Shown piece after piece: positions 42,961 to 44,463 of a stretch of DNA of 64,000 nucleotides. The number at the start of each line of letters is the position of its first letter. Position 1 is the stretch's first letter. Made by a program: the position numbers and the translations under genes. The notes below the pieces were generated by a model. That model had not been told where the DNA came from. It worked only from the letters and a program-made list of their open reading frames with translations, and did not search any database. Origin of the DNA: Eledone cirrhosa (taxonomy: Eukaryota); assembly GCA_964016885.1 (NCBI GenBank), contig OZ024751.1:2666001-2730000 (forward strand), read 5' to 3'.

Positions 42961-44463
42961 TAAATACCCCTCCGCCTCTGTGGTATTTTCTTCGGGGTTA
43001 TAAGAGGCTTAGCTCTGTTTCTCGACCGTTATATCGCGTGACTATCTCCCCCTCCGCCTTTTGGGATTTTTTTCTCACGTCGCGTAGACGCGTTCTTGAG
43101 ACTAGTAAAATGAGGTATCCTCTTGATAAGTCGGCAGACCTCGCAGGGACTCTATATCTTTATGATGTATTGTTTTTGTTTATGCCACGAAACTACGTAG
43201 TCGAGGAATCTAGGAGCAGTTTAGGTATGATACATTTTATTACTAATTATATCTAAATGTTTCTTCTCTCTTCATAATGTATTTTTAACTCTGATACTGA
43301 TTCAGTCTAGTTCAACCGGATTGGTCTGTCCCAGTCATTCATTGAGCAACATCGGTGAGGTTGGCACCCTTAACTCACGGTTGGGTGTGAATGCATTCAT
43401 GTATATGTGTGTGTCCGCATGTATCTGTGTGTTTCTAAATATATTGTTAATAACTCCCTCTGGTTGAGTAATCTTTGAAGTGTGGTGGCTGCTGGAAAGC
43501 TGCCATTACTCATACTTCTCGCCTCCTTCACCACCTCTTCTACGGTTTCGATATAAATACCCCCTCTGCCTCTGTGGTATTTTCTTCGGGGTTATAAGAG
43601 GCTTAGCTCTGTTTCTCGACCGTTATATCGCGTGACTATCTCCCCCTCCGCCTTTTGGGATTTTTTCTCACGTCGTGTAGACGCGTTCTTGAGACTAGTA
43701 AAATGAGGTATCCTCTTGATAAGTCGGCAGACCTCGCAGGGACTCTATATCTTTATGATGTATTGTTTTTGTTTATGCCACGAAACTACGTAGTCGAGGA
43801 ATCTAGGAGCAGTTTAGGTATGATACATTTTATTACTAATTATATCTAAATGTTTCTTCTCTCTTCATAATGTATTTTTAACTCTGATACTGGTTCAGTC
43901 TAGTTCAACCGGATTGGTCTGTCCCAGTCATTCATTGAGCAACATCGGTGAGGTTGGCACCCTTAACTCACGGTTGGGTGTGGATGAATTCATGTATATG
44001 TGTGTGTCCGCATGTATCTGTGTGTTTCTAAATATATTGTTAATAACTCCCTCTGGTTGAGTAATCTTTGAAGTGTGGTGGCTGCTGGAAAGCTGCCATT
44101 ACTCATACTTCTCGCCTCCTTCACCACCTCTTCTACGGCTTCGATATAAATACCTCCTCTGCCTCTGTGGTATTTTCTTCGGGGTTATAAGAGGCTTAGC
44201 TCTGTTTCTCGACCGTTATATCGCGTGACTATCTCCCCCTACGACTTTTGGGATTTTTTCTCACGTCGTGTAGACGCGTTCTTGAGACTAGTAAAATGAG
44301 GTATCCTCTTGATAAGTCGGCAGACCTCGCAGGGACTCTATATCTTTATGATGTATTGTTTTTGTTTATGCCACGAAACTACGTAGTCGAGGAATCTAGG
44401 AGCAGTTTAGGTATGATACATTTTATTACTAATTATATCTAAATGTTTCTTCTCTCTTCATAA
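42961..44463 (+). mobile_element. Family B: ~2.5 tandem 593-bp units, each with a variant HHR (43118, 43711, 44304)
   Basis: 593-bp period, TA flanks; tcctc-TTGATAA-gtcggca..tgccac-GAAA-ctacgtag-TC-gagga. Confidence 0.88.

Follow-up and report, generated by a model that had tools for sequence, protein, structure and literature searches.

A 593-bp tandem repeat with a U3–A8 hammerhead motif, probably a non-autonomous Penelope-like element

What kind of element is the tandem array at positions 42960 to ~44463 of the window, and does the variant hammerhead motif repeated in it belong to a real ribozyme? The window, the whole 64,000-nucleotide stretch of DNA analysed here, lies in a 3.0-Gb, animal-type, repeat-rich genome. 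A first-pass annotation had described three motif copies in 2.5 tandem units with a 593-bp period between TA runs, and each of these points was borne out. The motif's 5′ halves begin at 43118, 43711 and 44304 and its 3′ halves at 43183, 43776 and 44369, which gives a spacing of 593 bp twice; the array comprises 2.53 units, and units 2 and 3 are 98.8% identical. The family had also been called unrelated to the 467-bp arrays of the window, and this holds, because BLAST of the 593-bp unit against those arrays gave no match. The array sits inside the TA run that closes a different Penelope-like element (PLE) at 40684–42762. We conclude that the 593-bp unit is very probably a non-autonomous PLE (pseudo-LTR-type, a non-LTR retrozyme) that is mobilized in trans and carries a real U3–A8 type I hammerhead.

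42960..44463, plus strand: probable non-autonomous PLE-type insertion of 2.53 tandem 593-bp units, with 5′ truncation at a TATA-like box and a 3′ end at fixed site A
42763..42959, no strand: left (TA)n target, which is the TA run terminating the neighbouring, different PLE
44463..44490, no strand: right (TA)n target

Each motif copy runs from stem I through the first core box UUGAUAA, a helix II that begins with G10.1–C11.1, GAAA and a palindrome to a GUC cut site, and has the core expected of a hammerhead (UGA-N-(8)A, GAAA, a UH cut site and a Watson–Crick 3–8 pair).

43118..43207, plus strand: type I hammerhead, copy 1, predicted cut after C43202
43118–43122 paired with 43203–43207, plus strand: stem I of copy 1
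43123–43129, plus strand: first core box UUGAUAA of copy 1, with U3 and A8
43130..43188, plus strand: helix II, with G10.1–C11.1, an internal loop and a long distal hairpin
43192..43201, plus strand: helix III, a 10-nt palindrome
43711..43800, plus strand: hammerhead, copy 2, predicted cut after 43795
44304..44393, plus strand: hammerhead, copy 3, predicted cut after 44388

The 46-nt spacer within helix II had been taken for a long loop II. It is not open: the stretch is predicted to fold as a long interrupted hairpin that extends helix II (z = −3.5; 1 of 200 shuffles was equally stable). The palindrome of helix III is weak as a monomer hairpin, has a predicted energy of −12.9 kcal/mol as an intermolecular duplex, and the active monomer fold has a predicted probability of 0.015. 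These predicted energetics agree with cleavage as a dimer. The primary paper on dimer cleavage through a palindromic helix III is reportedly that of Lunse et al. The subject is reviewed in PMC6765202 (available excerpt). Folded as a circle, the cut-to-cut monomer is stably self-paired in the sense orientation (z = −5.0, versus −0.3 for the antisense; 30 shuffles each), as is expected of a retrozyme RNA.

Rfam gave no hammerhead match at gathering score in the window and none at E values up to 5 in 42961–43700; two weak matches, to a microRNA and to a lncRNA region, were dismissed as chance. The first-pass annotation had held that searches for the canonical core would miss the U3–A8 variant. 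Rfam does miss it, but it also misses the canonical-core 467-bp family of the window, and the variant alone therefore does not account for the miss. The Rfam hammerhead models do not cover PLE-type motifs, and descriptor and Rfam searches undercount ribozymes in genomes such as this one.

A search for the 5′ half of the motif that allowed any base at core positions 3, 7 and 8 gave 6,077 genomic matches, and a search for the whole intact core gave 7,108; the reversed control for the former and the control for the latter each gave 0. U3–A8 was read in 99 of 100 among the 5′-half matches listed. Position 3 is other than U in only 12 of the 6,077 copies, none of them C3–G8. The earlier reading had been made to depend on conservation of the motif in other genomic copies, and these counts leave it standing. 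A pattern for older subfamilies has 344 genomic matches; these copies are about 77–85% identical to the window unit, keep U3–A8, a unit of ~590–597 bp and both ends of the window family, and most of the unit is as conserved among subfamilies as the ribozyme. We compared 71 distinct ribozyme sequences, leaving out ten loci picked as position-3 mutants. In this set, whose selection itself favoured conserved copies, U3–A8 and G10.1–C11.1 each occur in 70 of 71, and 91.4% of cells are paired, compared with 29–55% for slid structures. Among these 71 sequences of the 593-bp family, covariation does not surpass that of shuffles, 499 of 500 of which attain the observed paired fraction, and the only pair that changes on both sides lies in stem I (U–A to U–G to C–G, nine sequences).

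Covariation appears in more distant relatives. A pattern excluding the main family found 191 further U3–A8 motifs (control, 1), of which we sampled 30 as a wider clan, three of them point mutants of the main family. In these relatives, 139 of 150 stem I cells are paired. Watson–Crick pairs number 118 in stem I, compared with 100.8 in shuffles, and 50 of 54 in helix II, compared with 37.8 (12 bulged-type rows left out); both values lie above all 5,000 shuffles, which ignore relatedness, and such 5,000-of-5,000 results are not probabilities. The covariation expected of a three-helix hammerhead is therefore found at the clan level, in stems I and II. Twenty-two of the 30 members have a perfectly palindromic helix III; these palindromes represent six different sequences, 6 to 10 nt long, of which the search pattern had fixed only the first two letters. 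The idea that stem III is self-complementary and suited to a dimer is strengthened by these palindromes, as it is by the predicted duplex energy. The canonical C3–G8 core occurs in relatives (L227, L018 and copies in L083, L225 and L175) that are 62–65% identical over ~430 nt to this group. Because these families are homologous, the 3–8 pair covaries among homologues, as the description of U3–A8 as a compensatory pair had implied. Covariation in stems I and II, the six palindromes and the C3–G8 families support a real ribozyme that would cleave as a dimer, and the occurrence of both core states and six palindromes in one clan is good comparative support for such cleavage. Comparison shows the hammerhead structure; that it cuts is an inference.

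The C3–G8 family at L227:1560–2990 is homologous to the clan, has a tandem unit of ~715 bp and shows an apparent A–C mismatch at 10.1–11.1 that recurs in L018. The window holds a decayed, distant U3–A8 clan member at 59523–60071 (minus strand), which has the splice-donor motif and a helix III palindrome of 6 nt but whose first core box is damaged. A compact, canonical-shaped type I hammerhead with U3–A8, from a third, unrelated family, lies at L077:9200–9300 (minus strand).

The first-pass annotation overlooked the PLE insertion signature, which gives the mechanism. We analysed 76 distinct insertions (72 merged regions), a sample biased to the best BLAST matches and to contig C1, and found two fixed 3′ ends.

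43272..43284, plus strand: site A, the first of the two fixed 3′ ends, 80 nt past the cut at unit position ~323; putative reverse transcription start
43440..43452, plus strand: site B, second fixed 3′ end, unit position ~486–493, ~245 nt after the cut

All but two of the 79 younger arms end at A (45) or B (32), and their 5′ ends are scattered; the stretch from A to B forms a ‘tail’ of ~165 bp. Head-to-head inversion is seen in 46 of the 76 insertions. Among the 41 inverted insertions with both outer ends at defined sites, 38 combine A with B, one has A twice and two have B twice (p = 1e-8 if the odds were even; a local duplication may account for two of the 38). Of the copies that are not inverted, 20 end at A, 8 at B and 2 elsewhere, and TA flanks are present at 104 of 122 3′ ends and 15 of 30 5′ ends. 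The copies therefore show fixed 3′ ends with variable 5′ truncation and partial tandems, an inverted 5′-truncated arm with a tail on one end, and insertion into (TA)n. The available excerpt of PMC8557442 gives as PLE marks partial tandems, a truncated arm in inverted orientation, microsatellite targets and a tail at only one end; the tail there is 30–40 bp, compared with ~165 bp here. The link to PLEs is made by insertion ends, not by pLTR homology. Separately, two long hairpins predicted at window positions 43211–43264 and 43355–43435 end shortly before sites A and B, and both are followed by a similar pyrimidine-rich motif; they may be recognition elements for a reverse transcriptase.

The 5′ ends do not pile up at the cut site, where 1 of 79 falls compared with 1.5 expected, and the next 47 nt hold an apparent mild excess (12 compared with 6.3). 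Of the 45 A arms, 44 cross the cut site, as do 25 of the 32 B arms, and arms extend through it for up to six units. Nothing in the DNA therefore shows cutting, and a cleaved RNA was rejected as the template on the same lack of a pile-up. A single ribozyme per strand is present in 40 of the 76 insertions, for which neither dimerization in cis nor release of a circle is therefore possible; at least two ribozymes on the same strand are present in 34.

Stops occur in all six frames of the 593-bp unit, and a tblastn search of six PLE protein pieces against it gave no match. As the unit has no open reading frame (ORF), we did not file it as an autonomous PLE. A short frame that opens at an ATG in helix II and runs to the splice donor was considered as a coding remnant and dropped because older subfamilies have a stop or lack the ATG. 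The retrozyme-like tandem family that had been proposed is supported by its non-coding units, each with a type I hammerhead and a GC content under 50%, and by its thousands of genomic copies. The unit works like a PLE pseudo-LTR, has the retrozyme features tested and is not an autonomous PLE.

Because the unit codes for nothing, its protein would have to come in trans. The genome is rich in PLE endonuclease ORFs that could supply it: 150 GIY-YIG matches were scored from 10,595 candidates. One of them, at locus L215, has a 938-residue reverse transcriptase (RT) and GIY-YIG frame with a pLTR on both sides that carries its own U3–A8 hammerhead, and this pLTR gave no match to the clan profile. An autonomous element sharing the 593-bp unit was not found in the 141 loci sampled (38 subfamily, 61 clan and 42 GIY-YIG loci). 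Apparent unit–ORF neighbours among the loci examined proved to be separated by TA runs, and a weak clan match beside an ORF at L193 is a nested relative. The PLE at 40684–42762 was rejected as the parent: it has no sequence in common with the unit and has its own canonical-core motif and a ~35-bp tail. The full-length autonomous PLE at L215:500–6130 (G000:C1:145869800–145876299), the U3–A8 hammerhead of which is short, is also represented in L216, L224, L226 and L035; in a family related to it (L222 and L193), a similar motif has an altered GAAA box.

We propose that the plus strand is transcribed, probably from an internal TATA-type promoter, and that a PLE reverse transcriptase/GIY-YIG protein supplied in trans would nick a (TA)n run. 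Reverse transcription would start inside the RNA, at A (80 nt after the cut) or B (~245 nt after it), and both DNA ends would often be primed, one at A and one at B, to give head-to-head inverted insertions. The cDNA would pass the ribozyme site and circle the unit for up to six turns, so that the template would be either multimeric RNA that had not been cut or a circle formed by religation. Cutting by the hammerhead would most likely be slow, as a dimer formed through the palindrome of helix III.

Much of this scheme has a counterpart in Poseidon PAc of the anole Anolis carolinensis, the protein of which initiates internally at two sites and extends both strands (Frangieh et al. 2024, PMC11167929, available excerpt). 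PAc has two start sites downstream of the hammerhead, and the 593-bp unit two putative ones, the first 85–92 nt after the cut in PAc and 80 nt after it in the unit, and the likeness extends to AT-rich targets, extension of both DNA strands and probable use of uncut RNA as template. PAc, however, is autonomous and has a tail of 30–40 bp, whereas the unit is without an ORF and has a tail of ~165 bp (PMC11167929). The ~7,000 young copies and their older relatives could serve as a test bed for PLE insertion priming, with two start sites and one used per arm.

A classical retrozyme cycle, in which efficient cutting yields an abundant ligated 593-nt circle and rolling-circle reverse transcription makes the arrays, is a special case of this trans-PLE explanation that is committed to the circle as template; we regard it as possible rather than probable. 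It would account for arms that cross the cut site for up to six units, and divergence is lower between units of one array (1.0%, 79 pairs) than between opposite arms (2.1%) or different insertions (2.7%, 3,583 pairs), with private variants shared by the units of one insertion. The circular monomer is also predicted to be highly structured, and coral retrozymes form circles (PMC7229834, available excerpt). However, uncut multimeric transcripts would leave an identical pattern in the DNA, and the anole PLE uses unprocessed RNA in vitro (excerpt of PMC11167929). A single circle would not give the two blocks of variants carried by one six-unit array, and the 593-bp unit exceeds the 150–450 bp reported for metazoan retrozymes (PMC7229834).

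The lack of any trace of cleavage at the insertion ends could instead mean that PLE machinery spreads the element while a non-cutting motif is kept as a fold or protein-binding site, or simply hitchhikes. The low predicted probability of the active monomer fold (0.015) and the conservation of most of the unit at the level of the ribozyme among subfamilies fit such a vestige, as does the finding that ribozyme mutants leave insertion of the anole PLE in vitro unimpaired (excerpt of PMC11167929). We nevertheless think it unlikely, given that the core, UH cut site, pairing and palindrome are kept across families that are 62–65% identical, with compensatory changes that include the 3–8 pair; nor does hitchhiking account for six different perfect palindromes. 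Far less probable still is a satellite or minisatellite generated at the DNA level by unequal exchange and slippage of TA runs, or a SINE moved by a conventional LINE, with the hammerhead incidental. Tandem structure, block-wise variants in some arrays and the LINE ORFs of the window would suit it, but the family consists of thousands of dispersed short arrays whose two fixed 3′ ends lie within the unit, lacks a poly(A) or tandem-repeat tail of its own and has A+B inverted arms. Exchange at the DNA level does not produce these features, which match the PLE pattern described in the literature. The fixed ends already largely refute this origin.

Two sequence features bear on transcription of the non-autonomous, trans-mobilized PLE that we favour.

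43552..43559, plus strand: TATA-like box, putative internal promoter, ~160 nt upstream of the ribozyme; its sequence is conserved in subfamilies
43225..43230 (unit 2: 43818–43823), plus strand: 5′ splice donor motif, 22 nt after the cut site

Among the 30 clan members, 26 have the donor motif 14–22 nt past the cut. In run X4, one contig exits the unit exactly at the donor and continues with 255 other letters. These match one genomic place, directly after a pyrimidine tract and AG, and a copy of the element on the same strand (not the copy in the window) lies 3.7 kb upstream. The simplest reading is a transcript spliced from the element into flanking DNA, in which case the ribozyme strand is the transcribed strand. 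The junction is seen in one contig of one run, both of its sides end in TAG, and a join by microhomology is possible. Because no acceptor is evident between the donor and site A, which lies downstream of it, copies that end at A leave an open donor. If use of the donor is widespread, the family would give rise to many chimeric non-coding transcripts. The hairpin at 43211–43264 is predicted to hide the donor. Runs X5 and X6, which are labelled as other organisms, contain pieces at 90–99% identity that may derive from a relative, a mislabelled sample or an environmental source.

We consider it doubtful, but worth stating, that promoter, ribozyme and splice donor form the cassette of an old, self-sustaining clan of protein-free PLE parasites and act as a copy-number switch. 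Site A would then lie inside an intron, most insertions would carry an open donor that splices into host DNA, and thousands of copies would seed chimeric transcripts. The switch would be the dimer-dependent hammerhead 22 nt upstream of the donor: single copies would yield capped chimeric RNA, and the RNA of tandem copies would be cut and circularized. The near-obligate A+B pairing and the 165-bp tail would, on such a proposal, reflect an asymmetric RT dimer with two start sites.

The kind of element and the core variant are already known, and the 593-bp family is a new family of this kind. It was not found in the literature searched, and could be listed in the supplements of PMC4209133, PMC8557442 or bioRxiv 10.64898/2026.07.22.740005. 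What the family adds is a long helix II, a 165-bp tail with near-strict A+B pairing, both core states in one clan and a conserved, apparently usable splice donor. The published systems compared below are taken from the available excerpts of the papers cited. Non-LTR retrozymes have been argued to be non-autonomous PLE derivatives (bioRxiv 10.64898/2026.07.22.740005). Those of metazoans (Cervera and de la Pena 2020, PMC7229834) are likewise non-coding, low-GC tandems with a type I hammerhead in each unit, thousands of copies in mostly short arrays and a structured RNA. Their units measure 150–450 bp (PMC7229834) or 51–972 bp (bioRxiv 10.64898/2026.07.22.740005), compared with 593 bp here. The present family is set apart from them by its U3–A8 core and 59-nt helix II.

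Covariation from C3–G8 to U3–A8 occurs in several natural ribozymes, and the U3–A8 pair is active in vitro (Perreault et al. 2011, PMC3088659). There are ~1,300 PLE hammerheads with U3–A8 in Schistosoma mansoni (PMC4209133), the only paper that a literature search for this variant in hammerheads found. The variant has thus been published already and is less surprising than the first-pass annotation had scored it. What differs from the variants of Perreault et al. is that one genome here holds both 3–8 states in repeat families that are homologous, and that its U3–A8 copies number in the thousands. The Cercyon PLE hammerheads of S. mansoni (Cervera and de la Pena 2014, PMC4209133) resemble the 593-bp family in their U3–A8 pair, longer helix II, short helix I and palindromic helix III, and in inverted motif pairs, which are 100–700 bp apart. 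In Cercyon, however, helix II is 7–8 bp and helix III minimal, whereas here the former is a long interrupted hairpin and the latter a 10-nt palindrome, and the motif sits, unlike that of Cercyon, in an ORF-less tandem unit (PMC4209133). Among published PLE and retrozyme hammerheads, weak activity or none at all in vitro is common (PMC4209133), and 8 of 9 Xenopus dimers were uncut (bioRxiv 10.64898/2026.07.22.740005).

The window contains other elements of related kinds. The 467-bp family (31860–36271 and 46420–48255) carries a canonical minimal hammerhead in a head-to-head inverted array, the outer ends of which differ by ~60–70 nt, the same one-sided tail pattern as in the 593-bp family. The PLE at 40684–42762 (minus strand) is 5′-truncated, encodes RT and GIY-YIG domains and has a cysteine linker of the Neptune/Nematis kind, as judged by motif only. 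It also has an inverted pLTR piece at ~42480–42762, a minimal canonical-core hammerhead and a tail of ~35 bp, and further pieces of its family lie at 45277–45610. PLE fragments and a LINE-like RT frame with C-terminal zinc fingers occupy 30343–31450 (minus strand) and 37116–37757, 55040–56800 and 49268–50560 (plus strand). Two long minisatellite arrays with strong strand skew occur at 2003–15035 and 16427–24441, with 20/40-bp and 19-bp periods.
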